The position numbers were made by a program, and so were the translations under genes. Shown piece after piece: positions 6,001 to 24,662 of a DNA stretch of 64,000 nucleotides (position 1 is the first letter of the stretch; every line of letters starts with the position of its first letter). The notes under the pieces are model-generated. The model ran no database searches, was not told the origin of the DNA, and worked only from the letters and a program-made list of their open reading frames with translations. The DNA lies in IMG/VR virus record IMGVR_UViG_3300033170_000307, one strand, 5' to 3'. The stretch comes from an uncultured virus (IMG/VR IMGVR_UViG_3300033170_000307). Lineage: Duplodnaviria; Heunggongvirae; Uroviricota; Caudoviricetes.

Positions 6001-9000
6001 GGCGGCGCTTCCACCACGCTCGGTGAGGGTGCCAATCTGCTGGCTCAGGCTGGCGATAGCCTGGGACAGGTGGTTGATGGGCCCAATGAGGGCATCGAGG
6101 GTGAAAGCACCACCCGAGCCGATACCTACGGTTCCGGGAACTGAGCCAATGCCCACTCCCGCCCCAGAAGAGAACTCTCCTGGGTAGTGTTCATTGATGG
6201 CATTCATCAGGGAACCACCTTCTCCAGTGATTTGGCCGGCTGGCCACGCGCCGTGTCTTTGGGCCAGCACACTTGCATCATCCACAACCCAGGGCGGCAG
6301 TTCGCCTGTAGCCTTGGCCGAGTGGAGACCGGCAGACATAGCATGCAATTCCTGCATGCCAGCCCCGCCTGGTCGGTATCTGCGGCCGGTAGCATCTGCC
6401 CACTGGGAAATGAAGTCGTCTAGGGTTATGAACTGCTTGGCAGACGAGAGGCCATACGCCTTGGTGAGGGCGCCCATCTCGTCCTTCATCACGTCTTGCA
6501 AAGGCATCCCCGAGAGCTGAGACAGGTGTTGGGCGGCCGCGTTGGTGACGCCACCTCCCACGCCGAGCGCTCCGAGGTACTTAGTGAGGTTGCCGCCGAA
6601 CGCTTCCAGAAGGCCGCGTCGGCTCAGGTTTCCGGTCTGCTCCTGGGACAGGCCGGGGAGCATCTTGGTCAGCTCTCCCTGCGACATACCCCCGGTCTCA
6701 AAGAATGGGACATTGGCAGCCTGGGTCCTGAAGAAATTGGCGATGGCTTCGAGCTTGGCCGGGTCGCCCTTGGCGGCAGTGATGGCCTGGATGAGGTTGG
6801 TGTCGCCGTACTTCATACCGGACGCAACCTGGTGCAGGCGCAGGAGGCCGTAGCCCCTGTGGTTAGCCTTGGAAACCCCGCCAAAGAGAGCGGCATAGTA
6901 GGGGTCGCGGTTGTACAGCCCCATCATGCTGCTGGCGTTAGCCATCCCTGAGAGCTTGGGCATGCCGCTGGTCATACGACCAGAAGCCAGGACGCCCAAC
7001 GAGCTCGGGGTGAGGAACTCTGGCGCCAGCGGCGTCAGGACCCCGCCGCCCAGGCCGCCTTCTCCCATCGGGACTCCCAGGCGCTCTCCCCACAGCCGCA
7101 TGGCCTGGTTGACGTAGGCTCCACCAGACCCCCAATTGGACGGGCCTTCCTTGCCAGGGAACAGGCCGCCGAGAGATTCCATCAGGGAACTGAAGTGGGA
7201 CCTGGCGTTCGTCATGGCAGCGCCGGTGGGGTTGGCGCGGAACTCGGCGGCCACCTTGCGGCGGAACTCGATGAAGTGGCCCGAGAGAGCCTTCATCTGC
7301 TCTTCGTTGATGCCTACCGTGCCCTTACCCTTCTTTTCATCGAAGAAGCCGGGCGCAGCCTTCTCGAACGCCTTGGCCACATCGGCCACGAACGCCGTAT
7401 CGCTGCCGCTGTAGTTGGCGGCGGCCAGCGCCAACGCCTCTTCGCTTGTCGGAAGCGATGAGTAGAAGCGCCAGGCGTCAAGCGGAGTTGAACGCTTACC
7501 GGAGCGGCCACCGGAGGAGTCCTGCTTCCAGAACTCGCCCATGCCCGAGCCCTTGCTGAGGGCGTTGAACCATTCTCGGCCGGCCCCGGAGTGGAACTCT
7601 CGGAAGGAGCGGATGTTCTGGGAAACGAGAGCCTGCAGCGGGCGGACGAAACTATCGGGCCTGGTCTGGACGCCGGGGCCCAGACGAGACATCACTCGCT
7701 GCACCTGCCGCATGGGGAACTGCCCGCCCTCGTAGCCGATGATGGGGAGAGAGCCCTGCTGCAGGGATTCGATGATGGTACCCAGCTCCGCGCCGGCGCT
7801 GGCTATGAACTGTCCGATGGCCCCCTTGGCCACGCTCGCGCGCGCCCCACCAGTGGCAAACTGCAGAGTGTCCTGGCCGTACATCGGGGCGCCCGCCACA
7901 GACAGCATGCGGAGCATGTCCCCGAGCTCGGCAGCGAGTGCGCGGCGGGAGTCTGAGCCCGGAGCGGCGGCGCCACGGCGGCGGATGAGGTCGGCCAAAA
8001 CGCGCCCGACCTGCTCGCGTTCGGTGGCGGTCAGGCGAAGCTGGTTATTGAGCCCCTGGGGCGTGAACGACGAAGCGGCGTAGGACTGGCCACCCATGCT
8101 GATGGGCTGGCCTGGCCGGGAGCCGAGGTTGCCCGTGTACAGGTTCATCATGGCTGAGATGCCATGGCTGGTGCCCTGCCACTGCAAAAGCGTCTGCAGG
8201 TAGCCTCGGATGTCTTGCGGGGAGCGGCCGAAGATGGCTACGGGGGCCATGAAGTCGGGCTCGGCGGTTGAGCCGAAACCAGAACCCCCCGTGGACACGC
8301 GCCCGTACCGGGTCATCATCCGCTGGGTTGTCCAGCCGGAGTCTGAGCGGGTGATGGGCATGTAGGGGATGGTCTCGCCGTTGGCGTCCAGGGCGCGGGC
8401 ACCGCTGGGCGGCACCGTAGCCAACAGGTTACGGAGCTCAGCCAAGTCGGCGCGCCCGGACGTGCGGTAGTGCTTCGCAATCATGTCCAAGATGGCCTGG
8501 CGAACCGGGGCTTCGGTGAGCGGGTTCTTATGGCCGGCGCCGCCAGAGTAGCCTGTGGCGCTCATGAACGTGCGGAAAGCCTGGGGGTCCACTCCGGCGC
8601 GGCGAAGCTGCTGCTCGAACTCTGTGGCGTAACCGGCGCCCTTGCTGCTGGTGTCCAGGTTGAGGCGCGGGTTGGTGCGCGACGCAATCTGCTGGTCCCA
8701 CATGCCTCGCAGCATGCTGGCTTCAACATAGCGAGGGGCGCTGCCAACTACCTGCTGCTCGTCAACGCGCTGCAAGTTGCTGAAGCGGCGCGCCGACTCT
8801 TCGATGGCGCGCGTCACGGCGGCCTCGACCTGAGCCCGAGTGGCCTGGTTCAGCTTCGATGCGAACTCCTGGGAGTTGCCGGCCCCGAACTGCTGCGCCA
8901 CGGCGCGGCGCACCATCTCGACGGCTTCGGCCCAGAGACTGCCGGGGCGCTTGTCGGTGGTGATGAGCGCGCCGGATGAGTCGCGCAGGTTGCCCTGGTT

Positions 9001-9534
9001 CTTCGTGAGCCAGTCGTTGACGCTTCGACCTACGGCCTGGTCTACCGTGGTCTTGATGATGCGGTCGAAGTTCGTCTTGAGAGAGTCCAGGTCTTTCTGG
9101 AAGCCAGCCTGGACCTTCTGCCGGTCGGGGTGAGTGGACTGGTAGAGCGGATGCGCGTAGCTGCCGCCATAGACCGTGCCGGCGCCGCCACCGGAGCGAG
9201 CGGTGCCGACCCCTTGGTTGGTAGCGGTGCTCATGACACGGCGCATTTCGTCAAGACTGCGCTGCATAGCGGCAGTCTCGCGGCGGATGCTATCGTGCAC
9301 GCTGTGGATGCGCGCGAGCATGGCTTCAGCTTCGGAGACTTGGGTGCGAAGAGCTGAGAGGTTGATGCCGGTTGCCTTGCCGGCGCCAGCAGAGGTGCCC
9401 ACTCCGGTATCGTTCAGTCTCTGGTTGAGGCTCGACACCTCGGAGACCAAGCGCTCGAAGTCGGTGATGTGCTGTTGGGCTGAGAAGTTGATGCCCGCTA
9501 CGGAATTGTAGGGGCCCTGGCCCTGGGGATTCAT
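1..9534 (-). CDS. Giant tail tape measure protein (>3,170 aa, runs off the left edge)
   Basis: ATG at 9534 with GAGGT RBS. No minus-strand ORF in the track terminates in this frame, so it appears open to position 1 (which is why it is absent from the track). Manual translation of ~4440-3700 gives a TP901-type TMP segment (IANDYGQSLTNV...IVDSWTNVTNNAQVTMEDLAEGVARAGASAKMAGVDFDTLNGLIAGGVRATGAAGSEIGNMLKTVF). It lies directly downstream of the tail chaperones. Confidence 0.9.
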   Translation of the reverse strand, partial: MNPQGQGPYNSVAGINFSAQQHITDFERLVSEVSSLNQRLNDTGVGTSAGAGKATGINLSALRTQVSEAEAMLARIHSVHDSIRRETAAMQRSLDEMRRVMSTATNQGVGTARSGGGAGTVYGGSYAHPLYQSTHPDRQKVQAGFQKDLDSLKTNFDRIIKTTVDQAVGRSVNDWLTKNQGNLRDSSGALITTDKRPGSLWAEAVEMVRRAVAQQFGAGNSQEFASKLNQATRAQVEAAVTRAIEESARRFSNLQRVDEQQVVGSAPRYVEASMLRGMWDQQIASRTNPRLNLDTSSKGAGYATEFEQQLRRAGVDPQAFRTFMSATGYSGGAGHKNPLTEAPVRQAILDMIAKHYRTSGRADLAELRNLLATVPPSGARALDANGETIPYMPITRSDSGWTTQRMMTRYGRVSTGGSGFGSTAEPDFMAPVAIFGRSPQDIRGYLQTLLQWQGTSHGISAMMNLYTGNLGSRPGQPISMGGQSYAASSFTPQGLNNQLRLTATEREQVGRVLADLIRRRGAAAPGSDSRRALAAELGDMLRMLSVAGAPMYGQDTLQFATGGARASVAKGAIGQFIASAGAELGTIIESLQQGSLPIIGYEGGQFPMRQVQRVMSRLGPGVQTRPDSFVRPLQALVSQNIRSFREFHSGAGREWFNALSKGSGMGEFWKQDSSGGRSGKRSTPLDAWRFYSSLPTSEEALALAAANYSGSDTAFVADVAKAFEKAAPGFFDEKKGKGTVGINEEQMKALSGHFIEFRRKVAAEFRANPTGAAMTNARSHFSSLMESLGGLFPGKEGPSNWGSGGAYVNQAMRLWGERLGVPMGEGGLGGGVLTPLAPEFLTPSSLGVLASGRMTSGMPKLSGMANASSMMGLYNRDPYYAALFGGVSKANHRGYGLLRLHQVASGMKYGDTNLIQAITAAKGDPAKLEAIANFFRTQAANVPFFETGGMSQGELTKMLPGLSQEQTGNLSRRGLLEAFGGNLTKYLGALGVGGGVTNAAAQHLSQLSGMPLQDVMKDEMGALTKAYGLSSAKQFITLDDFISQWADATGRRYRPGGAGMQELHAMSAGLHSAKATGELPPWVVDDASVLAQRHGAWPAGQITGEGGSLMNAINEHYPGEFSSGAGVGIGSVPGTVGIGSGGAFTLDALIGPINHLSQAIASLSQQIGTLTERGGSAATPQVERGSVQSVGIAPPTQTGGGGSGGGGGQTPPPDGRVRPIAPMGGGNNGGGNGGSGDNPPPPEDGDFKQRVWAYEESFRLQRELQKQFDAQAVGAFPKLGSEDVSSARRQYAQSVGYGRFGRQYQVGSEEASIGLEFRPDTEGNLQRVIRGNANAANMEQARAQAEVYAKELFSNYHPSRPGMTADEIRAERAGHALDYGFLGQSVASGKVGHGLASTAVDYIATGSGVQVVPRTPSGMMPVNRTDLPGVLRALEAAENEKMREKAREKLGANASEADIARDMRRAQLERVGENIRPINVVDSYGNMNRRMLRWGISADPNGRVSPHLQDVAPEGKVFRSFDEVATHARNLSAVFDELARDARGAGNAMTDEGAFYGEVGREKMRVAGQEVGVRFLRTAGGEVIASPEMGRSIQALPTPQAHAEVQNLLRMRAQEIEKSLDALSQVPGIGNLRSMGRVYDKVPVQWTSPGGHTLLEQQYSMTQTARGVKAIPEQGQLGFARVGGDITNAIEKVGLWAVATGAVYNFMAAVRGAYSLMTKFEEELATSRVLQPGYSDLGRVRKEFIGIANDYGQSLTNVTQAAHLWERQYKNVYQVLELTRESIKLSKVDNIDLAQANKYLEATINEMGFAASDVGRIVDSWTNVTNNAQVTMEDLAEGVARAGASAKMAGVDFDTLNGLIAGGVRATGAAGSEIGNMLKTVFAKMYTTDAARELNQIGVATHEVVNGVRELRPAQEILGDLASKWGTLTRAQQESIALGMAGGVRQVNRLSAVLGDYRTVLDAAARSSEGFGAANREVGIRMDTLAGQFAKLKANVQGVMSSSFFEGGGLNIARSGVSVAQNVVGAVSAAPPMAQGVLVNSLYGIAGVTGLNMMSRIFGGEAALNMGHLRMLANAGRAVGPVGAVETGVGGVINAGAKAVGAAGSAVSGWLGRNSFGRALQEGYRLTARSPIVAAEAAEAVAARGAVEGFTSSLLGGTSIIGGFIGHIKNMSRVMAIVISAVGLLTGVGVAAHYLKTTPEEREIERVQNRQIRLRPLYEARERVDQINQDERKFGALGIAQVIERDELQRRIQELGYKFGVGDGSGVVGLDSASKQAALNAYAGAIGDMSRGRGTERLSALGATVRGLTTWVPANEGGMTGIRQSLDLRDMAVTIGGQKAGADPKLQNQLMAGHMGEATREVAMRLGIAAPQLRQDASVFEIFESLSPNRYVVEGDSALGAFGQAAQSGKDAMLYSWRGSNDRRTDRRVYSLGWDNDAKQYALTQATEKGDTSLVGLFKTVEEAQRHIAASGDNFKAIAGDRKAELTFQETTKSLEVFDDRIKRLGQTTTEVMRVMSSINKQFTTSGVAVGVGAYGSTAASRLTGPMAGAMNQMYEAQQQYNESMGQAALARRNLQSSIMKRRRKGDTRSDEEIIRDAREDARAAKQNQAGAADYVSLEISEADQALNGYLDSARRALDVTRQTAEALREAVENIKSLQDSSLELYNVWSEVGQAVKASRDAAWAMYEVQKTMAADAMASSMSASIGLGGSQHEAALALDRKYEEASSRAISQIAGAYVGGMAANARAFGGEMPMGIRLPSFAQGGPSAYSLLENQLYASSDLAGSGAYSGAPENVLNEAAMTFYRAVGIFAGAVGAPGGSTEGADTSKGRIFGAGLAEGGFSDRIVAQSPHKSKDSFLAWLNKGEYVLPAGMAAVLGPALEQGRTKGGTGALLGLLSGIRGYAEGGYVSPDEETARRFIQRGQRYGSAAGEIPFGSAALRRSPDLLLRIAEQLNTEPGLLRDGFDPTAGSSSRALADLNWLLRKGGAFGPQYTDVIRQRLADAGLPAASNATRFSRLAEQAQAAGRYHSWPATTLRRVGPAWDSFLGTIGRGEEAFMSAYERSSAALGRGFNRMVGGIGAGMDRTSQFIMGNEAGDLFPRLGRGFNRLTSRPMAWGQRAADWMFETEGGFRPAMAGIGRLRAGASGRLDRLSQFIMGNEAGDLFPSMGRGFNRLTER

Positions 9535-9759
9535 CAACCGTGACCTCTTGGAAGGAAAAGCCTTCCGAGAATGAAGCACAGAGGCAGAGGCGGCCCGCTG
9601 TATGGAACCAGCTCGTACCTGGCTGTGCGCCGGTACGTATGGCTAGACCGCGAGTAGCCCTGACGGTAGATTCCGTCAGCGAAGGAAGCGGCGTAACAAA
9701 TGGGTTTGATAGCCGTTACCCCACCAGGGGGTGCCTTGCCATACACCATTTCCAGATAG

Positions 9760-9770
9760 GAAGTATTCCG
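9760..9770 (-). promoter_or_regulatory. Late-promoter-like motif CGGAATACTTC upstream of TMP
   Basis: Exact 11-mer shared with six other sites in the structural module; lies just after a terminator hairpin. Confidence 0.7.
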
Positions 9771-9777
9771 TGGCAAA

Positions 9778-9808
9778 CAGAAGCGCCCCCAAAAAGGGGG
9801 CGCTTCTG
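9778..9808 (-). terminator. Hairpin terminator after the tail chaperone
   Basis: Inverted repeat CAGAAGCGCCCCC-n-GGGGGCGCTTCTG. Confidence 0.6.
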
Positions 9809-9827
9809 CTGTCACGAGAGGGTGACA

Positions 9828-13921: not shown

Positions 13922-14371
13922 CTACTGCTCCACTACCTTCTGGCACTCAACGATGATGCGGTTGACTTGCCCTATGCCCGATGCGGCGATGTTCACGACG
14001 GTGACGCGCTGGCCGTCAACCATGAGCTCCATGCCTTCCTTGAAGTACGGGCGCCACTGCGGCTCGACTTCAACGGTGCAGCTACCCAGGTCCACCCGGC
14101 CCGGCTCCGTGTACTTCAGGTCGTCAGTCTTCACCCAGCGCACAGCGGCCTGAATCTGTACCGGCTGTTCGGTGTGGCTCTCTCCAGTTCCATCGCAGGT
14201 CGGGCACAGTGGGTTCTTAGGGAAGCCAGTGGTCTGGTCTACCCCGCCACAGACTGGGCAGCTTGCTGTCGTGACAACCTGCACGGTGATGGGTCGGCCT
14301 ACGGCGCGCATCACATCATGGGTGTCCTGAGCAATCTGCGCCCTGTCTTCTGGTGAGAGCAGCATGTCCAT
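13922..14371 (-). CDS. Head closure/head-tail joining protein, putative
   Basis: 149 aa with CxxC...CxxC insert and a beta-rich C-terminus (LMVDGQRVTVVNI); synteny. Confidence 0.5.
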   Translation of the reverse strand: MDMLLSPEDRAQIAQDTHDVMRAVGRPITVQVVTTASCPVCGGVDQTTGFPKNPLCPTCDGTGESHTEQPVQIQAAVRWVKTDDLKYTEPGRVDLGSCTVEVEPQWRPYFKEGMELMVDGQRVTVVNIAASGIGQVNRIIVECQKVVEQ

Positions 14372-14382
14372 TGCTTACCTCG

Positions 14383-15417
14383 TTACGGATTAAGCTCGAA
14401 GATGGTGCTTATCATCACCTGGGGCTCGGGACGGTCGGCGTCGGCGGGCGGCGCGGTAGCCACGGTGTCCATGGCCGCAGCGCATACCTGGTCTTCCAAC
14501 TGCTGCTTGAAGTCCTTGAGCACCTGGGCCTCATTGCGCGGGATGCTGCTCCGCTTCATGGACAGGCCGGCGTCAGTGAAGTCGAAGCTGCGGCGCGCGT
14601 CCACCTGGACCTGCATTTCCAGGACCGCAATCTGGGCGGAGAGCATGAGCATGCCCAAGATAGTGGCGGGGTTGGTGTCTATGGTGGGTTGGCCATTGAC
14701 GTTGGATACTGCCAGGAGCCCACGGTTGGATAGCGCGGTACAGGCGCGCATTGCGGCCTGCGTGAGCTGCCCTCGGCTGTAGGTCTTGTGGAAGTAGCTG
14801 ACGATGATGCTGTCGCCGGCAGCGGGCGCCGCCGTGAGGTCGAAGACGCCGTTGTCGTAATCGGCGGTGTAGCCGTTGCTCTGGGCCCCCGCCGTGAAGC
14901 CGGTCTGGGTGCCGCTGGCCGCCATCTTCGTCACGGTTTCAGAGCCAGGCACCAGGTTATTCCCCATGACAGAGAAGCGCCTGTTGGTGCCGTTAGACGC
15001 GCCGAACGCCATTTCCCCCATGGCGGAATGGGGGCCATTGCCGATGGCTTCCTCCAAGAAGGGGATGATGTCGGCGATGAAGTATTGGTTGCCGCTCGGG
15101 GTGAAGACGTAGCTCTTGAGGATGACGAGCTCGGCGCTCATGGAGACGGCCGTGCCGGAACCGTTGAAGCCACTGAACGTCACATTGTAGGTGCCCTCTT
15201 CCCACTGCCCATGGTAGAAGGTGTTCTGGAAAGAGTAGACACCATCTGAGCCAGACCCCGTGCTGGTGAGCATGGACACCCCGCCGCGCTTGATGACCAC
15301 GTTGACGCCCTCGGCACCCCCGGCCGTCTTGTAGACCGGCACATTGACACCGGCTGTGGTGCGAAACGCCACTTCGAGGGTTGCGTTCTGTCCTTGGTAG
15401 ACGGTGATGGTTGCCAT
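14383..15417 (-). CDS. Head-tail adaptor with N-terminal beta domains, putative
   Basis: First structural gene after capsid/TnpB; helical C-terminus (FDFTDAGLSMKRS); GGAGG RBS. Confidence 0.5.
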   Translation of the reverse strand: MATITVYQGQNATLEVAFRTTAGVNVPVYKTAGGAEGVNVVIKRGGVSMLTSTGSGSDGVYSFQNTFYHGQWEEGTYNVTFSGFNGSGTAVSMSAELVILKSYVFTPSGNQYFIADIIPFLEEAIGNGPHSAMGEMAFGASNGTNRRFSVMGNNLVPGSETVTKMAASGTQTGFTAGAQSNGYTADYDNGVFDLTAAPAAGDSIIVSYFHKTYSRGQLTQAAMRACTALSNRGLLAVSNVNGQPTIDTNPATILGMLMLSAQIAVLEMQVQVDARRSFDFTDAGLSMKRSSIPRNEAQVLKDFKQQLEDQVCAAAMDTVATAPPADADRPEPQVMISTIFELNP

Positions 15418-15443
15418 TGCCGAACCCTCCGTAGTGTCTCTAT

Positions 15444-15454
15444 GAAGTATTCCG
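15444..15454 (-). promoter_or_regulatory. Late-promoter-like motif CGGAATACTTC
   Basis: Exact copy 27 nt upstream of the ATG at 15417. Confidence 0.7.
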
Positions 15455-15455
15455 C

Positions 15456-15566
15456 GATAGAGAAGCGGGGGCGTCTTGACGCTACCGCCTAAGCGGCTTC
15501 TCGCTTGCGCGAGCTACATGCCGGGCGTCCCCCGGAACTACCTGGAGCGATGACCCCAGGATACTT
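15456..15566 (-). ncRNA. TnpB omegaRNA (reRNA) scaffold/right end plus putative guide
   Basis: Hairpin-rich segment overlapping the tnpB 3' end and ending GCGTCAA (15476), the typical IS200/IS605 right-end tetranucleotide; following 20 nt GACGCCCCCGCTTCTCTATC would be the guide. The 5' boundary is uncertain. Confidence 0.65.
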
Positions 15567-16682
15567 GTAGGTCCAGACGTTAGGCACGTCACAGCCTGGA
15601 ACAAGCTCGCCGCGCATCCCGATGCAGCGGATGTTGGCGGAACCCACCACGTCACGATGGGCAGTAAAGCCGCAGTCACAACAGCGGTAGGTTCGCCGAC
15701 ACTTGTTCCGAGTTCCGCAAACGGGACACGTTTGGGAACTATACGCCTCGCCTACCGTAATGGCACCGGCCGTCTTGTAGTCGAGTTGCGTAATAATGCG
15801 AGAATTGCAGGCTTCTGAAACCTGTTGAGCCTGGCGTCTGCCGAGCTTCTGAGCGGCGTCATTGAACGGCTCGCCGACGTAACACTTAGCTCCTGGGAAC
15901 GCGTCCGCAATCGTGCGCGTAGCCTTGTGAGTGAGGTCTTTGACTCGGTTCTCAGACTTCTTCAGCAGCTTATGCTTGCGGCGCTGGAGCCGGCCATACT
16001 GACGGGAGCCCCGGTGACAGTTGGACTGCTTACTGCGGAGAGACGCCAGACGCTTAGCGCGCCATTGGACTGTGGCTTTTGCTTCGCGACCCGAGACGAG
16101 AACTGCGGTCTGGCCATCTGTGGCGGCGAGGAGCGTATTGACGCCGAGGTCTATGCCGAGAATGGGGCCGGTCGGGGTAATCTGGGCTTCACATTGGCAG
16201 ACCAAGATTACTGCACCATAGGTGAGTCTGGCCTCCATAAGTCGGCCAGGAAGAACAATGGTACGCGGGAGCGGGATGTAGAGATAGCCGGCAGAACCAT
16301 TGGACAACCGCAAGTTGGCATCCCGCACCACCGCGCCCTGGTTCGTATGCGGGACCCCATGGAACTCACGAGGCTTATGTGGGTAGTTGGCCTCTGGGTG
16401 CCCATTGCGGCGCAGGGTAGCTGCCGAAGCAAGTGCTTCGCAGAACTCGGATATGATTAGTTGCACGGACTGGCTATGGAGATTGGGGTACTTGCCTTTG
16501 GCCCATTTGCGCCAGCGCTTTTCTGACGGCCACTTGAGTTGGCGGCGACGGATGCGCAGATGGCGCTCTACCAAGTCGGACCAGAGTCGGCCAGCTTCAC
16601 GGCGGGCAGCCGTGAATGTAGCCCACTCGGCCTGCGAGCGGGGGAGCCAGTCAATGGTTACAGACCTGTAAGCGGTTGGCAA
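15489..16682 (-). CDS. tnpB: RNA-guided endonuclease TnpB (IS200/IS605 family)
   Basis: RuvC-I GIDLG, RuvC-II VGE, SSQTCPVCG...CCDCG zinc finger, RuvC-III HRDVVGSANI; D-E-D triad intact. No tnpA nearby. Confidence 0.92.
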   Translation of the reverse strand: MPTAYRSVTIDWLPRSQAEWATFTAARREAGRLWSDLVERHLRIRRRQLKWPSEKRWRKWAKGKYPNLHSQSVQLIISEFCEALASAATLRRNGHPEANYPHKPREFHGVPHTNQGAVVRDANLRLSNGSAGYLYIPLPRTIVLPGRLMEARLTYGAVILVCQCEAQITPTGPILGIDLGVNTLLAATDGQTAVLVSGREAKATVQWRAKRLASLRSKQSNCHRGSRQYGRLQRRKHKLLKKSENRVKDLTHKATRTIADAFPGAKCYVGEPFNDAAQKLGRRQAQQVSEACNSRIITQLDYKTAGAITVGEAYSSQTCPVCGTRNKCRRTYRCCDCGFTAHRDVVGSANIRCIGMRGELVPGCDVPNVWTYKYPGVIAPGSSGGRPACSSRKREAA

Positions 16683-16708
16683 TGGTTACAGACCTGTAAG
16701 CGGTTGGC
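16653..16708. repeat. 28-bp perfect tandem duplication at the tnpB start
   Basis: AATGGTTACAGACCTGTAAGCGGTTGGC at 16653-16680 and 16681-16708. Confidence 0.95.
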
Positions 16709-16718
16709 ATTGGTACTT

Positions 16719-16729
16719 GAAGTATTCCG
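16719..16729 (-). promoter_or_regulatory. Late-promoter-like motif CGGAATACTTC upstream of tnpB
   Basis: Exact copy 8 nt upstream of the ATG at 16710. Confidence 0.7.
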
Positions 16730-16748
16730 TACCGCAGGGTCCGGGCGC

Positions 16749-16776
16749 AAAAAAGGGGGCGCCTCGCGACGCCCCC
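16749..16776 (-). terminator. Rho-independent terminator after the major capsid gene
   Basis: GGGGGCGTC-GCGA-GGCGCCCCC followed by TTTTTT on the minus strand. Confidence 0.8.
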
Positions 16777-16807
16777 TCTCCTATCCTGCTGTCTGGCTCG
16801 TGGCTAA

Positions 16808-17764
16808 CTACGTGCCCACGATACCCTTGAGGAGGTACCGGGCATCCTTCACGAGGAAGCCGATAATCTCGCGGACCCGGACACCCACGCGCCAGTTGTC
16901 GGCGGCCCCGACCAGCTCTTCGGACTCGAAGGCGCCCTGGAGAGCCATGTTGAAGGCCTCTTCCTTGGCGCTCAGGTCGAACCCGTAGAGCTCGTACTGG
17001 GTCAGGCCCCAGTACGGGGTGAGCTGGACGCCCATCACGCGGTCAATGGCCCCGCTGCGGATGACGGCAGACTTCTCGGCGTTGCCGTACATGGAAGTCC
17101 AGTCAATGGTGTCGAGGAGGCGCGTCGGCGCGCCGTAGATGTCGGTGAGCTGCCGGCCCATCTGCTGGCGCGGGTTGGTGGGGTGTTCCATCATCCGGGC
17201 TAGCATGAGCTTCAGGAGCTGAGGCGAGAACGAGTCGTGACCCGCGGCCCCGTCATCGAGCTGCACGGCGGTGTTGGCGGCGGTGGATGCGGTCTTCAGG
17301 AGCGCCCAGCCGGAGGCTTCCTCGGCGGCGGCGATGGCCTCGCTGATGAGACGGAGGCACATGTTGACCACATCAATGCGTCCGTCCTGCTGCATGCGCT
17401 TCGGCCACTCCATGGAGGTGCCGAGCTCATACGTGGTCGGGTACGCGATGTCCGCGATGGGGAGCTGAGTGGGCTGGCTGTAGAGCTGCGGCACAGTCCA
17501 AATCTGGCTCACCAGTTCGTCCTTGTTGAAGACCGGGAACGAAATCTCCTGGCCGACCGAGAACGACTGGACGGAGAAGATGCCGCGCACGGTGCTCATG
17601 TCGTCCAGTCCGATGACGATGGGGTCAGTCAGACTGGCGGCCCACTTCCTGAACTCGTCGGGGCTGGCTACGGCGGCAGCGAGGCCCGCCTTGATGTCAT
17701 TGTCTGCCAGCTTCGGGTTGAAGAAGGAGGCGATGCGCTTGCGCTGGAAGGCTGTCTTGCTCAT
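16808..17764 (-). CDS. Major capsid protein (HK97 fold), putative
   Basis: 318 aa, strongly biased codons, GGAGGT RBS, downstream terminator, synteny after scaffold and decoration genes. Confidence 0.8.
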   Translation of the reverse strand: MSKTAFQRKRIASFFNPKLADNDIKAGLAAAVASPDEFRKWAASLTDPIVIGLDDMSTVRGIFSVQSFSVGQEISFPVFNKDELVSQIWTVPQLYSQPTQLPIADIAYPTTYELGTSMEWPKRMQQDGRIDVVNMCLRLISEAIAAAEEASGWALLKTASTAANTAVQLDDGAAGHDSFSPQLLKLMLARMMEHPTNPRQQMGRQLTDIYGAPTRLLDTIDWTSMYGNAEKSAVIRSGAIDRVMGVQLTPYWGLTQYELYGFDLSAKEEAFNMALQGAFESEELVGAADNWRVGVRVREIIGFLVKDARYLLKGIVGT

Positions 17765-17781
17765 TACTCATCTACCTCCTG

Positions 17782-18339
17782 TTAGGCCACGTAGCTGTAG
17801 TATGTAGCGTAGGGTCCCAGCAGAAGGATACGGATGTTTCCATCTGCCGTGGGGGCGCTCTCACAGACCGCCGCCATGAGGCCGCCTTCGGTCGCACTCG
17901 GGGTGGCGTTGTAGGCAGCGGTGAGCTTGCCTGCGTTCGTCACGTAGAGCGGATTGCTGGGGGCCGGGGTCCCGACGTAACACTCGTCGGGGATGATGCA
18001 GTGGGCCGGGCCGATGGTTACGGCGCACACGTCGCCTTCTTCGGCCTCGTGCGTCAGGCGGCGTCGGAAGTTACCTTCCGTCTTGGAGCCGACCACATAC
18101 CCGAGGGTAGAGGCGGCACGGGACGGGGTAACATCCTGGTTCAGGAGCCCGATGGCGGAAGTACCGTCGCTCAGGACGATGGGCTGGGCTTCGTCAATGT
18201 CAGCGACCGGAGAACCGGACTTGTACATGACGGCCAGACCCGCTTCCACCAAGGAGGCACCGTTGGGGATGAAGCCGCTCTCCGTCTTGAAGAACGGAGC
18301 CTCATACCCACCAAGAATCCTCTGGAACTTGCGAGCCAT
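17782..18339 (-). CDS. Capsid decoration/cement protein, putative
   Basis: 185 aa between scaffold and capsid; AIGLL and LYVTNAGKLT motifs typical of such proteins. Confidence 0.6.
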   Translation of the reverse strand: MARKFQRILGGYEAPFFKTESGFIPNGASLVEAGLAVMYKSGSPVADIDEAQPIVLSDGTSAIGLLNQDVTPSRAASTLGYVVGSKTEGNFRRRLTHEAEEGDVCAVTIGPAHCIIPDECYVGTPAPSNPLYVTNAGKLTAAYNATPSATEGGLMAAVCESAPTADGNIRILLLGPYATYYSYVA

Positions 18340-18434: not shown

Positions 18435-19403
18435 CTACTCGTCGGACGACTTGAGCTGCTCGTGCCACAGCTTCTGGTAGCCCTGGGTCAGGGCCTCGTA
18501 GCTACCCTTCGCGGACACTTCGCCGACTGAGCCGCCCGCAGCGGTCTCGCCGCCAGGGCCACGGAAGACGAACATGCTCTGCGCGCTGCCGCCGCCGCCG
18601 CTGGTCACGGGGAGTTGGGCGCCGGCCGGTGGCTGCTGCTGGGAGGCCTGAGCCTCGCCGCCTTCGCCACCTTCGGTCTGGGCGCTGGCTTCCTCGTCCT
18701 GCGTCTCGGTCTCGGCCTGGGCCTCGCCACCCTCAGCGAGGGTCTCGGTCTGGGTCTCGGCCTGGGCCTGGGCTTCGCCGCCATCGGCGGGCGTCTCGGT
18801 CTGGGTCTCAGTCTCGGCCTGGGCCTCGCCGCCCTCAGCGGGGGTCTCGGTCTGGGTCTCGGTCTGGGTCTCGGTCTGGGCCTGGGCTTCGCCGCCATCG
18901 GCGGGCGTCTCGGTCTGGGTCTCAGTCTCGGCCTGGGCCTCGCCGCCCTCAGCGGGGGTCTCGTTCTGGGTCTCGGTCTGGGCCTGGGCCTGGGCTTCGC
19001 CGCCATCGGCGGGCGTCTCGGTCTGGGTCTCAGTCTCGGCCTGGGCGGTCTCCGTCTCGGCCTGGGCGGTCTCCGTCTCGGCCTGGGCGGCTGCGGCGGC
19101 GTCCTTCGCGGCCTGGATGAACGGCTGGGATGAAGCGACGTACTTGCCCCACATCTCGTCGCTCATGTCGTTGGCCAGGGCGCGCACATCGTCCGTAATC
19201 GGGAGCGGGTCGAGCTGGGCCAGGCGGGTCTCGGTGCGCTGGGCGGTCAGCAGTCCGTCGAGCTGGCTGCCGCGCGACTTGAGCTCTTCCTGGACCTCGC
19301 CGAGTCCGCTGGCGAAGGTTTCGAGCTTGTCGCCGATGGGCTTGATAGCGGTGGCGACGCTCTCGTCGAGCATCTGCTTGAAGTCTTCAGTGGTCATAGG
19401 CAT
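18435..19403 (-). CDS. Nested in-frame scaffold protein (MPMTTEDFKQ...)
   Basis: Internal late motif at 19426-19436, GAGGTG RBS and ATG at 19403; coiled-coil and acidic sequence. Confidence 0.7.
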   Translation of the reverse strand: MPMTTEDFKQMLDESVATAIKPIGDKLETFASGLGEVQEELKSRGSQLDGLLTAQRTETRLAQLDPLPITDDVRALANDMSDEMWGKYVASSQPFIQAAKDAAAAAQAETETAQAETETAQAETETQTETPADGGEAQAQAQTETQNETPAEGGEAQAETETQTETPADGGEAQAQTETQTETQTETPAEGGEAQAETETQTETPADGGEAQAQAETQTETLAEGGEAQAETETQDEEASAQTEGGEGGEAQASQQQPPAGAQLPVTSGGGGSAQSMFVFRGPGGETAAGGSVGEVSAKGSYEALTQGYQKLWHEQLKSSDE

Positions 19404-21008
19404 TGCCGTGTCACCTCTCGTGTCAGAAGTATTCCGTGTATCTGTGGCCTGTGTCAGAGAACTTTTGCCACTATCGCCCTTGAGCAACACCTTAGCGTGT
19501 GCAGCGAGGTGCGACTTCATGCGCTTCTTCATGCTGCTCGGGCACTGCGTCATCGGCAGACGCGCCAACGCGTTGCGCAGAGGGGCAAGGCCCACACTGC
19601 CATTCTCGTCGGACTTCTTGACCGAAGCATCATGATGGGGGAGCTTCCGCTTGGCGCGGGGAGCAGTGTTGCCGCCCTCGTCCTTCTTGCCGCCCGGCAG
19701 GAGACCGGCGAAAGCCGCGTCAGGAAGGTCGTTGACGTACTTCTGCGTCCATACGGCTGCGTCAGTGCTGTCGCTGATGATGAACATGCCGGCTTCGGCC
19801 GCCATCGCTTCATCGAGCTCGCCAACCAGTTCGCCTACATCGTCCAGGCCGTCAGCTAGTACCGTGACCCACTCTTCGATGCGCTGTCCTGCGATGTCGT
19901 GTGGGACGGTGTTGCTTTCGTGCTCGGACCAGGAGCCGTCCGGGTTCTTGATGAGGACTTGGAGAATGACGCCGGCGTCCGTCTCGGATACCTGCAGCTT
20001 GTACAGGTCGTTCTCGAAGCCCGACAAAGCAGACCCCTCAGCCGGCTCGGGGCTGACGGAACTCTGCTGCTCGATGACATCCACGATGGGGGTTATATCC
20101 AGTGGTTCGGTGCCGGGGTCGTAGTTGCTGCAAGTCGCCGACACGGGGTCGAAGTTCAGGCAGGCCAGGCCGTCCGCGCTCGGCTTCGCCATGGCGCAGT
20201 CCCCGTAGCTGAGGGGGCAGATGTTGGAAATGGAGTTCGCGGCGCGGCGCTCGGCCACGGTCTCGCGCAACTCTTCGATGCGACGGGAGACATCGCTAGC
20301 CGTAGCCAGACTGCCGCGCGACAAGACAACCGGCTCGGGCGAGACGCGGATGATGCGGGACGCCACCGATGCGTCGTAGGTCTTCTCGGCGGCCTTGCCA
20401 TCGTTGTCAACGTACTTGACGGAGAGGATGCGCGCGTTCGTGTCGGCGGGGACCTTGACCAGCGCGGCGCCGCTGAAGAAGACGCGAGAGTCATCCTCCG
20501 CACCACCGAGGAGCCGCACGACGGGCTTGCCGTCGTAGAGCGCGCCCATGTAGGGTGAGAGCTCTTTCCAGCGTTCACTCTTCTCGGTGTACGTGCGCCC
20601 CTTGTAGGAGAGCGCCACCTTATCGAAGTAGCACTCCATGCTGACGCGCCAGTTGTTGCCCTCTTCCTCGTTGTTCTGCAGGTCGTGCGCGAGGCAGTAG
20701 AAGATGTCGCGGTAGATGACGGCGGCGCCGACGATGAAGACCTGCCCGTCCTGCTCGATGAGGGCGGCGTCGTAGGTGTGGCCCACGATGTCGGTGTCCC
20801 AGTGCTCGATGTTGAACGGGCTGTGGATGACGGACTTGAATGAGTTGGCCAGGGTGGCCGGGGTCCAGCTATCGCTATTGGCGTTAATGGCCGGCAGCGC
20901 ATGACACAGGACATAACTCATGTAGAGCTGCGTCCAGTTGTCGGCCACTACCGGGGTCAGGTCAATGGGTGCCGATAGCACTTTGATGTGCTGCTGTGTT
21001 TCGGGCAT
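18435..21008 (-). CDS. Prohead protease fused to scaffold (likely start MPETQQ at 21008)
   Basis: INANSD, FNIEH...IVGH, WRVSMECYF and FSGAALV..PAD motifs of herpes/HK97-type maturation proteases; GAGGT RBS before 21008. Confidence 0.75.
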   Translation of the reverse strand: MPETQQHIKVLSAPIDLTPVVADNWTQLYMSYVLCHALPAINANSDSWTPATLANSFKSVIHSPFNIEHWDTDIVGHTYDAALIEQDGQVFIVGAAVIYRDIFYCLAHDLQNNEEEGNNWRVSMECYFDKVALSYKGRTYTEKSERWKELSPYMGALYDGKPVVRLLGGAEDDSRVFFSGAALVKVPADTNARILSVKYVDNDGKAAEKTYDASVASRIIRVSPEPVVLSRGSLATASDVSRRIEELRETVAERRAANSISNICPLSYGDCAMAKPSADGLACLNFDPVSATCSNYDPGTEPLDITPIVDVIEQQSSVSPEPAEGSALSGFENDLYKLQVSETDAGVILQVLIKNPDGSWSEHESNTVPHDIAGQRIEEWVTVLADGLDDVGELVGELDEAMAAEAGMFIISDSTDAAVWTQKYVNDLPDAAFAGLLPGGKKDEGGNTAPRAKRKLPHHDASVKKSDENGSVGLAPLRNALARLPMTQCPSSMKKRMKSHLAAHAKVLLKGDSGKSSLTQATDTRNTSDTRGDTAMPMTTEDFKQMLDESVATAIKPIGDKLETFASGLGEVQEELKSRGSQLDGLLTAQRTETRLAQLDPLPITDDVRALANDMSDEMWGKYVASSQPFIQAAKDAAAAAQAETETAQAETETAQAETETQTETPADGGEAQAQAQTETQNETPAEGGEAQAETETQTETPADGGEAQAQTETQTETQTETPAEGGEAQAETETQTETPADGGEAQAQAETQTETLAEGGEAQAETETQDEEASAQTEGGEGGEAQASQQQPPAGAQLPVTSGGGGSAQSMFVFRGPGGETAAGGSVGEVSAKGSYEALTQGYQKLWHEQLKSSDE
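18690..19090 (-). repeat. Coding tandem repeat AQAETETQTETPA(D/E)GGE
   Basis: About six long imperfect units plus shorter AQAETET units in the scaffold C-terminus. Confidence 0.95.
19426..19436 (-). promoter_or_regulatory. Intragenic late-promoter-like motif CGGAATACTTC
   Basis: Exact copy inside the protease ORF, about 23 nt before the internal ATG. Confidence 0.7.
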
Positions 21009-21033
21009 TAAATGACCTCTTCTGGAAGAAGTT

Positions 21034-21143
21034 CGGTGCAGGACGTAAGACATGTGACGCTGCCGCTTGTGCGACTTCTCGCTTTCACGAGCTACTTGCC
21101 GGGCGCCCCCCGGAACTACCTGGAGCTTGACCCCAGGATACTT
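21034..21143 (-). ncRNA. Orphan TnpB omegaRNA/right-end copy with a different guide
   Basis: 21054-21143 aligns by eye to 15476-15566 with about 12 differences in 91 nt; ends GCGTCAC, followed by ATGTCTTACGTCCTGCACCG. Confidence 0.75.
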
Positions 21144-21326
21144 TTGGGCTTTATTGTGCCCACACGCTGAGAGTTTTGCGCGACAGACGCTTCTCTGTCG
21201 CAACCTGATACGCTCAAGTGTCAAGGTGCATACGACACCATCCCGTTATGGTACGGGCCAACCCGAAATCTCGTTGAGACTTCGCGCGCCGTAGGCGGAG
21301 ACGCATCCGGTGCAAACTCCACAGTG

Positions 21327-21337
21327 GAAGTATTCCG
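21327..21337 (-). promoter_or_regulatory. Late-promoter-like motif CGGAATACTTC
   Basis: Exact copy between portal and protease. Confidence 0.7.
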
Positions 21338-22976: not shown

Positions 22977-24662
22977 CTAGCGACGCTGGCCGAATACGCC
23001 CGTACTGACTGAGCCACCCGGCAAGGGGTCGCCTTCGCTCGTGGTTTGCAGAGTTACGCGCTTCGCAGCGTAGTTCCCCAGACAGGTCACTATCGCGCGG
23101 TCTTTGGGCTGGTTGCCCGGTGTGTCGAAATGCAGGGTGCCGTTGTTGTTGGCGCTCATCTGGATAGCGCGAAGTTCGCGCTGGGCGGCCATGATGTGGT
23201 CCTGAGCTTGCTCGGCCGCTTCGAGTAGAGGGCCCCCGGTGACGAACGGGTCAACCTTGCCCGCGAACTGGATGCGCTTAGTTTCCAGGCCGCTCTTCAG
23301 GCCCATGTAGAGCTCTTTGTTGACTTCGGTGCTTTGCGCCACCGGGTCCAGGATGTTCTTGGGGTCGCCGGGGTTCTCCTCATCGAAGAGCCCGAACTGC
23401 CCGTAGGGAATCACCACGTTTGAGAGCGGCGGCATGAAGCCTTCCTTGTCCCCCGGCTCGCAGAGCAGGTCCACGAGCGCCAAGCCACCGCCTCCTCTAT
23501 CTATGCAGATGTGAGCCACGTTGAACCTGGCGGCGATGCCCCCGATGATGTCGCGCATGACGGGGGTGCTGAGCCCTTTGTCCGCGAAGCAGTAGACCAT
23601 GGCCCACAGGCCGGGCTCGACTTCTTCGAACACCGAAATCGCGAAGTAGTCACCCGTGCGGGCGGGGTCAACAGCCATCACATAGCGCCGGCCAGGGACC
23701 GGGGCCAGGCGCACGGACAGTTGCGGGTTCACGCACTGCTGGATGAGGCTGGCGTTGAAGAAGCCGTCGCTGTCGGCAGGGAAGTAGGCGCACCACTCCA
23801 TCAGGAACTCGATGACGCCCATCGTCTTCATGGCGTCATTGATGACGGAAGCGGACATGAACCCTTCAGGCAGGTCGCGGTAGTCGAACACGTAGAGCCC
23901 ATAGGCCGGGTCGTACTCGGGGTTGTGGCTGCCATCCTCAAGGAACTCTGCGGTGTACCTCAGGTACTGCTTGTACTTCTCATAGAAGTGATTGAACTGG
24001 TAGTAGGCAGAAGACGACAGGATGAGGCGGTTGCTCCGGGACAGCCGGTCGAAGTCAATGCCGGCTTCGCGGATTTCGGCTTCGTATCGCTTCAGGCGCG
24101 CCAGGCGCACTTGGGCAGCCGGGTCAGCAGCCGTGGCCGCCAGCGGCTTGATAACCAGGTCAATGACCTCTGGCGTAATCTGCGCCGCCTCGTCCATGAG
24201 GATGCTGTTGGCGCGAGCGCCGCGAATCTTGTTGCCATCACCCAGCGGCAGGGCAAAGACCATGCTGCCGTTCCTGAGCTTCCAGATGGACTGGTCAGCC
24301 AGGTTCGATGGGCCGCCGTTTCTCATCGTGCAGCGCTGCAGGAACGGGCTCTTGTTAATGGCACGCTCGATTTCGGCGAAGACGAACTTGGCCTGACGGA
24401 ACGACGGGCCGACGATGCCGACCTTCCAGCCCGAGTACAGGATGGCTTCCAGGATGGCCATGCGGCTGAGGTCGAACGTCTTGGTGGTACCACGACCACG
24501 CGCGTTCATGATGAACGTCTTGTTCCACGAGTCCCGGTAGAAGAACCGCTGGTGCGGCATGTACTCATCGCCGATGAGAATGGTGCCGGCGAATACGGGG
24601 TCGCTTCTGAACAGCCTCAGCAGAGCAATGTCGTTCTTGGTGAGTGGGCTAAGACGGGGCAT
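22977..24662 (-). CDS. terL: Terminase large subunit
   Basis: Walker A RGRGTTKT, IRGARANSILMDEAA Walker B, RNase H-like AVDPARTGD and KDR. Confidence 0.92.
   Translation of the reverse strand: MPRLSPLTKNDIALLRLFRSDPVFAGTILIGDEYMPHQRFFYRDSWNKTFIMNARGRGTTKTFDLSRMAILEAILYSGWKVGIVGPSFRQAKFVFAEIERAINKSPFLQRCTMRNGGPSNLADQSIWKLRNGSMVFALPLGDGNKIRGARANSILMDEAAQITPEVIDLVIKPLAATAADPAAQVRLARLKRYEAEIREAGIDFDRLSRSNRLILSSSAYYQFNHFYEKYKQYLRYTAEFLEDGSHNPEYDPAYGLYVFDYRDLPEGFMSASVINDAMKTMGVIEFLMEWCAYFPADSDGFFNASLIQQCVNPQLSVRLAPVPGRRYVMAVDPARTGDYFAISVFEEVEPGLWAMVYCFADKGLSTPVMRDIIGGIAARFNVAHICIDRGGGGLALVDLLCEPGDKEGFMPPLSNVVIPYGQFGLFDEENPGDPKNILDPVAQSTEVNKELYMGLKSGLETKRIQFAGKVDPFVTGGPLLEAAEQAQDHIMAAQRELRAIQMSANNNGTLHFDTPGNQPKDRAIVTCLGNYAAKRVTLQTTSEGDPLPGGSVSTGVFGQRR

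Follow-up and report, generated by a model that had tools for sequence, protein, structure and literature searches.

A tnpB cassette without a transposon left end among the virion genes of a metagenomic phage: possible homing-like spread and decay

The uncultured Caudoviricetes phage recorded in IMG/VR as IMGVR_UViG_3300033170_000307, a large phage of wastewater sludge, carries a tnpB cassette that lacks the left end of an insertion sequence (IS) and stands behind what appears to be a promoter motif of the phage itself. The DNA analysed here, called the window throughout, is a 64-kb stretch (GC content about 62%) of a 215,187-bp metagenome contig, with L003 as an exact sub-match. The cassette gene, including its omegaRNA region, spans window positions 15476-16710 on the - strand, and the genes flanking it are all on this strand: that of a probable major capsid protein upstream and that of a virion-block protein downstream (Table 1).

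Table 1. Window coordinates of the tnpB cassette, its surroundings and other features discussed in the text.
Feature	Position	Strand	Basis or remark
tnpB open reading frame (ORF), 397 aa from TTG	15489-16682	-	Pfam, ISDra2 structure match
28-bp tandem duplication, 2.2 copies, 97% matches, spanning the tnpB start	16652-16714	-	TRF
CGGAATACTTC motif at tnpB	16719-16729	-	8 nt before ATG 16710; position of the relatives' sigma70 promoter
omegaRNA 3' scaffold module, four hairpins, ends GTCAA	15476..15566	-	alignment and RNAalifold
Guide template GACGCCCCCGCTTCTC, first 16 nt after the scaffold, begins GACGCCCCC	15460-15475	-	homology boundary
Intrinsic terminator hairpin AGGAGAGGGGGCGTC-GCGA-GGCGCCCCC-T6	16749..16783	-	fold, 16 stacked pairs in the minimum free energy structure
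Second CGGAATACTTC motif, promoter of the next gene	15444-15454	-	5 nt after the 16-nt guide template, 26 nt before ATG
Upstream gene, probable HK97-fold major capsid protein, 318 aa	16808..17764	-	Protein Atlas
Downstream gene, 344 aa, virion-block protein of unassigned function	14383..15417	-	ORF list
Solo omegaRNA-like module without tnpB ORF	21054-21143	-	91% identical over 70 nt to the main one
'Guide' of the solo module, ATGTCTTACGTCCTGC	21038-21053	-	flank of the solo omegaRNA
Large terminase	22977-24662		phage gene in the window

The product of the cassette is a TnpB by domain content and by its match to TnpB structures. It matches PF07282 (Cas12f1-like_TNB, E 2.4e-14) and PF01385 (OrfB_IS605, E 6.7e-12), both above the Pfam cut-offs, and aligns with the ISDra2 TnpB structures 8bf8 and 8exa (E 2.2e-12). 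When the window TnpB was aligned with 120 homologs (n=121), D178 and E312 were found in 121/121 sequences, D344 in 120/121 and G270 without exception, and the zinc-finger cysteines C319, C322, C334 and C337, all present in the window protein, were conserved in 118-121 of the 121. At the canonical RuvC-II position, residue 271, the window protein has E, and the family is divided between E (59/121) and K (54/121). A variable RuvC-II position with an invariant E312 downstream distinguishes these proteins from the ISDra2 type and fits, by description, the 'RuvC-II rearranged' TnpBs with a relocated glutamate that are set out in PMC10691335; by analogy with these, E312 is read here as the relocated RuvC-II glutamate.

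As had been proposed in the initial annotation of this DNA, the cassette lies behind the phage's own motif. The sequence CGGAATACTTC occurs in seven exact copies in the window, all on the - strand and all within the block of virion genes at 9.7-25.7 kb. With up to one mismatch there are eight matches against 0.39 expected, a number that none of 100 shuffles reached. Six of the seven copies lie 8-60 nt before a start codon, the copy at 9760-9770 having none nearby, and two copies other than that of tnpB were scored as sigma70-like promoters of the form CTGACA-N17/18-AATACT. These regularities suggest a promoter-like motif of the structural-gene block; 'late' is a label of the initial annotation only. 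The promoter-tnpB junction ACTTCNAGTACCAATG has 68 matches in IMG/VR, none of which encodes a TnpB relative and none of which has GGAAT upstream.

Upstream of this motif is an intrinsic terminator, the T-tract of which is separated from ATG 16710 by 38 nt, phage motif included. The layouts that had been quoted for the two flanks are both present in the sequence, and folding shows that GGGGGCGTC-GCGA-GGCGCCCCC-T6, the hairpin on the upstream side, makes a complete terminator by itself. We considered and rejected this hairpin as an IS left-end hairpin: it resembles neither the right-end hairpin (CCGC-TTAG-GCGG) nor the left-end hairpins of the relatives, and it has a T6 tail. Another terminator-promoter module of the - strand, at about 9760-9810, reads AGAAGCGCCCCC-T5-GGGGGCGCTTCT-GTTTGCCA-CGGAATACTTC, that is, a hairpin, 8 nt and the motif, and its arms are similar to two other sequences, the guide template and the T-run with the adjoining 3' arm in the terminator that precedes tnpB (exact match of 13 nt). 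The intergenic modules of the phage seem, by such resemblances, to share G5C-rich arms, and recombination between modules could be favoured.

The relatives of this TnpB show what a complete element looks like. The family comprises 931 homologs at E<=1e-20, and 15 family loci were located in species genomes, mostly metagenome-assembled genomes (MAGs) of Chloroflexota. In one genome (G003) with seven full-length copies, homology starts about 130 nt before the ATG and stops at GAGTGTCAC; the left-end flank is CTAC or TTAC in six of the seven copies and CTAT in one, and a second group has YTAC in 4/4. Judged from these sequences, YTAC (10 of the 11 relatives with clear borders) is likely to be the target-adjacent motif (TAM) of the family. 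The left ends consist of about 130 nt of hairpins that resemble the right-end hairpin, together with a TTGACA-17-TAnnnT promoter; in 10 of 16 relatives, 6 nt separate the TAnnnT box from the start. Genes for Y1 TnpA are present in all five relative genomes; by coordinate comparison each is more than 5 kb away from every family copy, and the family is therefore normally non-autonomous.

The window departs from this arrangement as the initial annotation had said, with neither a tnpA gene nor an IS left end. Three Y1 TnpA proteins used as tblastn queries against the whole 64-kb window detected none (best E 0.06). A canonical left end with subterminal hairpins was not found at the window tnpB, where the gap from motif to ATG is 8 nt, and the relatives' hairpins of about 130 nt and their sigma70 promoter are missing from the window. 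Elsewhere, a tnpB that is 55% identical, on an IMG/VR contig (L002, 2950-4220), has 44 nt between the upstream stop and its start, a small hairpin and no canonical left end, and tnpB genes without a left end may therefore be common in phages. The tnpB of L001 (64% identical) has retained left-end hairpins and a TTGACA-N17-TAGAAT promoter.

The omegaRNA could be delimited by comparison. Together with some 60 nt that follow, the 3' end of tnpB can be aligned with 16 relatives, and across 18 sequences 15 of the 20 pairs predicted by RNAalifold show compensatory changes. All aligned omegaRNAs end in ...AG(n)GTCA(C/A), the sequences past that point being unrelated. Logan contigs from four runs (X2, X3, X4 and X6; alignment threshold 85%), one of which is possibly the window's own source, give the same boundary: in all four the contigs of other copies diverge at 15477. 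The guide is therefore templated from 15475 downwards, by the 16-20 nt that follow GTCAA, and the earlier placement of its boundary, with the guide beginning GACGCCCCC, is borne out. A covariance model scored the main omegaRNA at 69.5 bits with this sequence itself in the training set, and a search of the window with the model adds nothing independent, since only its two training copies were found; Rfam gave no family over 14000-18000. In two bacterial copies from an Ardenticatenaceae MAG, L006 (3640-3900) and L007 (3640-4000), arrays of short GC-rich GTCCCCTACGGGGGA... repeats interrupt the omegaRNA between its third hairpin and the GAGTGTCAC end.

At the other end of the gene the window copy is damaged. 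Of the initial claim that tnpB opens at ATG 16710, 8 nt from the motif, the spacing stands and the opening of the frame does not: a 28-bp duplication lies across the start, and the long ORF is opened by TTG 16682, which stems from the second repeat copy and has no Shine-Dalgarno sequence. Contigs of X2 and X4 carry the duplication gap-free, and one X3 contig (16094-17687, with two other differences) lacks exactly 28 nt; the duplication is therefore a real variant, and a -1/+1 frameshift or an assembly artefact behind it is ruled out. The database protein P0006, 97% identical to the window TnpB, begins MPTAYRSVTIDW at an ATG. An intact reading frame from a usable start is thus a property of sister alleles and not of the window copy. 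Because the relatives have a -10-like box 6 nt before the ATG their genes look leaderless, and we infer that the window copy makes little or no TnpB. To judge from its reading frame, this copy is probably dead in cis, the duplication breaking the frame from a near-leaderless ATG.

Sister phages carry the locus in filled and empty forms, as had been expected. The filled form is seen in contigs of X2, X3 and X4 that cross both junctions. The empty form is seen in X6, in a single contig of 4557 nt (depth 13) that matches 14000-15420 and 16808-18200 and represents a cassette-free sister phage; with about 10 differences per flank of about 1400 nt, its flanks are approximately 99.3% identical to the window. 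The match ends 3 nt before the ATG of the next gene and at the capsid stop codon, so at the threshold used the empty allele shares with the window no terminator, guide template, second promoter copy or 5' untranslated region. The cassette is dispensable and polymorphic among near-identical sister phages, in which it is intact, frameshifted or absent. Word shares of about 0.5 in the runs X5 and X7-X12 would agree with additional empty alleles but do not count as evidence for them. Scanning metagenomes with an alignment of the capsid protein recovered L003, which is the window's own contig and identical to it, and otherwise only a weak 35-residue match (L004), hence no second empty site; IMG/VR scans gave no relatives of either flanking protein, and a blastn comparison of INPHARED phages with window 14300-17900 gave no matches.

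Further copies of the cassette, whole or in part, exist at other loci. X6 holds two more tnpB copies, about 89% identical, in other flanks. On the coding strand their 5' ends read ...TTCCAGTACCA-ATG-TCC... and ...GTACCA-ATG-GGA..., and the window junction reads CTTCAAGTACCA-ATG; the first copy agrees with the window in the spacer and in the final bases of the motif, the second only in GTACCA-ATG in the 30 letters compared. On this comparison of letters, the junction between promoter motif and gene is common, at least in part, to copies at different loci. A paralog on the same 215-kb contig outside the window, P0015, is 75% identical; all other homologs are at or below 66%, and the phage copies therefore form a clade of their own. 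Within the window, a solo omegaRNA-like module lies about 190 nt downstream of the motif at 21327-21337, inside a long 5' region before an ATG near 21007. It could be the remnant of a deleted cassette, or it could supply a second guide usable in trans. A 929-aa ORF (18435-21224, - strand) encloses the module and has the motif at 19426-19436 inside it, with an ATG 22 nt later; this ORF is probably not a single gene and is of the spurious long type that is typical of high-GC DNA.

We propose, with a probability of roughly 0.45, that the cassette represents a phage-adapted TnpB lineage that no longer transposes, has been kept by homing-like copying between co-infecting phages and is decaying in this genome. 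Held jointly with this proposal, and just as tentatively, is the origin of the cassette in an IS200/IS605-type element that was non-autonomous and belonged to a lineage frequent among MAGs of Chloroflexota. Without a left end the cassette would be immovable by TnpA, yet the phage-specific clade retains copies that are intact and look expressed, and the locus varies between sister phages; for these reasons selfish RNA-guided spread appears to be the most economical reading. The cassette would be transcribed together with the virion genes, and an intact TnpB-omegaRNA complex would, during co-infection, cut cassette-free genomes that carry the TAM and GACGCCCCCGCTTCTC. Recombinational repair from the filled genome would then copy the cassette in, a 'non-restorative homing' like that of free-standing homing endonucleases, and the broken window copy, the degenerate paralog and the solo omegaRNA would belong to the decay phase of a selfish-element cycle. 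One may speculate further, although we consider the extended scenario doubtful, that the lineage switched from bacterial IS to phage, dropped its left end, took a virion-gene promoter motif and became an element that lives purely by RNA-guided homing or competition when jumbo phages co-infect a cell, with intact, broken and empty alleles and trans-usable solo omegaRNAs cycling in the population in the manner of classical homing endonuclease genes.

Several observations weigh against homing-like spread. No YTAC is found upstream of the window tnpB, where the TAC trinucleotides stand in GTAC, ATAC and GTAC. In the empty X6 contig, 88 unrelated letters replace the 1387-nt intergenic region, and the empty allele may be without a guide target altogether. 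The frame opened by ATG 16708-16710 stops after 19 codons, out of frame with tnpB; P342H, beside the catalytic D344 of the window copy, is unique among the 121 aligned sequences; and the N-terminus of P0015 is degenerate. Homing, furthermore, is same-locus copying and leaves copies at several loci unexplained, and a broken copy, a degenerate paralog and a solo omegaRNA fit a dying IS remnant equally well.

Such an inert remnant is the alternative that survives best, and we regard it as quite possible: an IS605-type tnpB element would have transposed into phages, lost its left end by deletion and remained as a neutral passenger that ordinary phage recombination duplicates, converts, breaks and deletes; the presence or absence of the cassette would then mirror this turnover and not a spread driven by the nuclease. 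All three known copies in the phage contig are damaged, by the duplication, the altered N-terminus of P0015 and the reduction to a solo omegaRNA. Moreover, of the nine residues in which P0006 and the window allele differ, seven cluster within 247-271 (window 15870-15945) and are mosaic with P0015, suggesting gene conversion between paralogs, and the empty allele departs from the filled one throughout the intergenic region, in the manner of a module replacement, not of a clean insertion or excision. A neutral passenger sits less well with the intact ORFs that persist in P0006 and in the X3 contig, and with the conservation of catalytic residues, zinc-finger residues and omegaRNA pairs in paralogs whose divergence amounts to 11-25%. 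That copies at different loci have in common a precise fusion to a phage promoter likewise suggests that expression has been maintained.

Alternatively, the cassette might have inserted into the loop of the capsid terminator, as envisaged in the initial annotation, bringing a new 3' arm, T-tract and promoter, so that the displaced original arm, GACGCCCCCGCTTCTC, would guide TnpB against the hairpin of empty phages. Some of the grounds for this model hold. The guide is indeed complementary to the 5' arm of the capsid terminator, matching 13 of 16 positions on the + strand at 16768-16783 with a duplex energy of -30.7 kcal/mol, an unusual value that only 2 of the 12,795 - strand windows attain, and the module at about 9760-9810 is of the same build. 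A terminator-arm-like sequence does template the guide: the 16-mer has 13 matches in unrelated IMG/VR contigs and is a hairpin arm in at least seven of them. None of the 13 is preceded by TAC, and these matches therefore mean only that GACGCCCCCGCTTCTC is a common type of terminator arm. The + strand site itself is preceded by CTCGC and is mismatched at guide positions 10, 13 and 16, and the proposed joint (..CGTC, that is ..GGGGGCGTC) lacks YTAC. The reconstructed hairpin would have no U-tract, TATCGCGG following it, and the solo copy at 21054 has no complementary upstream arm. The upstream hairpin is already complete with its T6 tail, and the flank layout therefore needs no split hairpin. 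Finally, the X6 contig, the sole empty allele that a search for cassette-free relatives yielded, keeps neither the GGGGGCGTC nor the GACGCCCCC arm and joins elsewhere, at 15420/16808, an outcome that the initial annotation had itself named as contrary to its model. We therefore retain insertion into the terminator loop as an unlikely, minority possibility for the origin of the locus and not as a demonstrated target.

TldR-type repressors are nuclease-dead TnpB proteins in which RuvC catalytic residues have been lost or the C-terminus is truncated. An exaptation in which TnpB-omegaRNA serves the phage, by cutting rivals without copying itself or by tuning late transcription at the terminator/promoter junction in a TldR-like way, would agree with the position of the cassette behind a phage promoter motif, with a guide template that overlaps the -35 position belonging to the promoter motif of the downstream gene and with a second, solo omegaRNA available in trans, but we hold it to be improbable, given that the nuclease (D178, E312, D344) and zinc-finger residues are retained, unlike in TldR, that a sister phage of 99% identity does without the cassette, which in the window is broken, and that no second guide target was found within the window.

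The surroundings of the cassette are those of a phage virion block. The protein upstream, probably an HK97-fold major capsid protein, was matched to 'putative major capsid protein' clusters with a Protein Atlas feature score of 0.98 and TM (template modelling) scores of 0.74-0.81; its Pfam match to Phage_capsid_4 (E 0.012) is under the cut-off of that family, and an AlphaFold2 model was discarded at a pLDDT (predicted local distance difference test) of 32.7. The downstream protein has no Pfam or PHROG match. Besides the large terminase, the window encodes a DNA methyltransferase, a NAD-ligase and a thymidylate-synthase-like domain. A frame that stays open for more than 3193 aa (window 1-9579, - strand) runs off the end of the window and begins about 180 nt downstream of the motif at 9760-9770 and of a hairpin terminator at about 9780-9810; it probably encodes a giant virion or tail protein.

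TnpB retains transposons by cutting the empty donor site. 'Restorative homing' by TnpB is reportedly the subject of a preprint by Meers et al. (10.1101/2023.03.14.532601). Both TnpB in phages and TnpB homing are known already. Our literature searches found no phage case of TnpB homing, natural or experimental, and no natural promoter replacement. A 2026 review lists 'transposon non-restorative homing' as theoretical for co-infecting phages or plasmids, and on its account TnpB spread among phages that co-infect a cell has to date the status of a proposal (PMC13565253). The locus described here makes TnpB homing in phages testable, with a TnpB that appears not to transpose, a phage promoter motif, a defined guide and natural filled, frameshifted and empty alleles, the last three from public wastewater and digester metagenomes. 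If homing-like spread is indeed the explanation, RNA-guided nucleases would take their place beside protein homing endonucleases in generating phage mosaicism and in interference competition.

Among known systems, the cassette has in common with IS200/IS605 tnpB elements of the ISDra2 type the TnpB fold signature, the zinc finger, a gene whose 3' end overlaps the omegaRNA and a guide taken from the right flank. Its closest bacterial relatives have ends of the form YTAC-left end...right end (GTCAC) and are likewise without an adjacent tnpA. In contrast to IS200/IS605 elements, the window cassette has no left-end hairpins, no TAM at its left border and no tnpA in the window, and a phage motif occupies the promoter position. 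The nearest mechanistic parallel is the TnpB gene drive of IS605 in multicopy plasmids, for which experiments are presented in a preprint by Mears et al. (PMC11870625). As outlined there and in the review (PMC13565253), this drive has in common with the spread proposed here the cutting of an element-free homologous replicon and the copying in of the element without need of TnpA; the plasmid work uses complete IS elements and experiments, whereas here the element is a left-end-less one of a phage, represented by a natural filled/empty pair only.

Genes for TnpB have already been reported in phages (PMC12607003, PMC11437467, 10.64898/2026.02.14.705889). The TnpB or miniature type V systems of cyanophage A-1(L), of the Thermus Lalka phages and of landfill megaphages are similar in that tnpB is phage-borne and sometimes absent from sister phages. 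The tnpB of cyanophage A-1(L) is described as identical to IS copies of the host (10.64898/2026.02.14.705889), whereas the copies here form a phage-specific clade; those of the Lalka phages (PMC11437467) and of the landfill phages (PMC12607003) are described as adjoining CRISPR-like arrays, whereas here there is no array and a phage motif replaces the family promoter. The free-standing homing endonuclease genes of T4-like phages, of which the review (PMC13565253) treats SegF and others, provide the other comparison: these too are dispensable nuclease genes that separate conserved virion genes, that some close relatives have and others lack, and around which the intergenic region differs by allele. 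Their recognition is by protein, whereas the element described here would depend on an RNA guide and a TAM, with a target in an intergenic module and not in a flanking gene.

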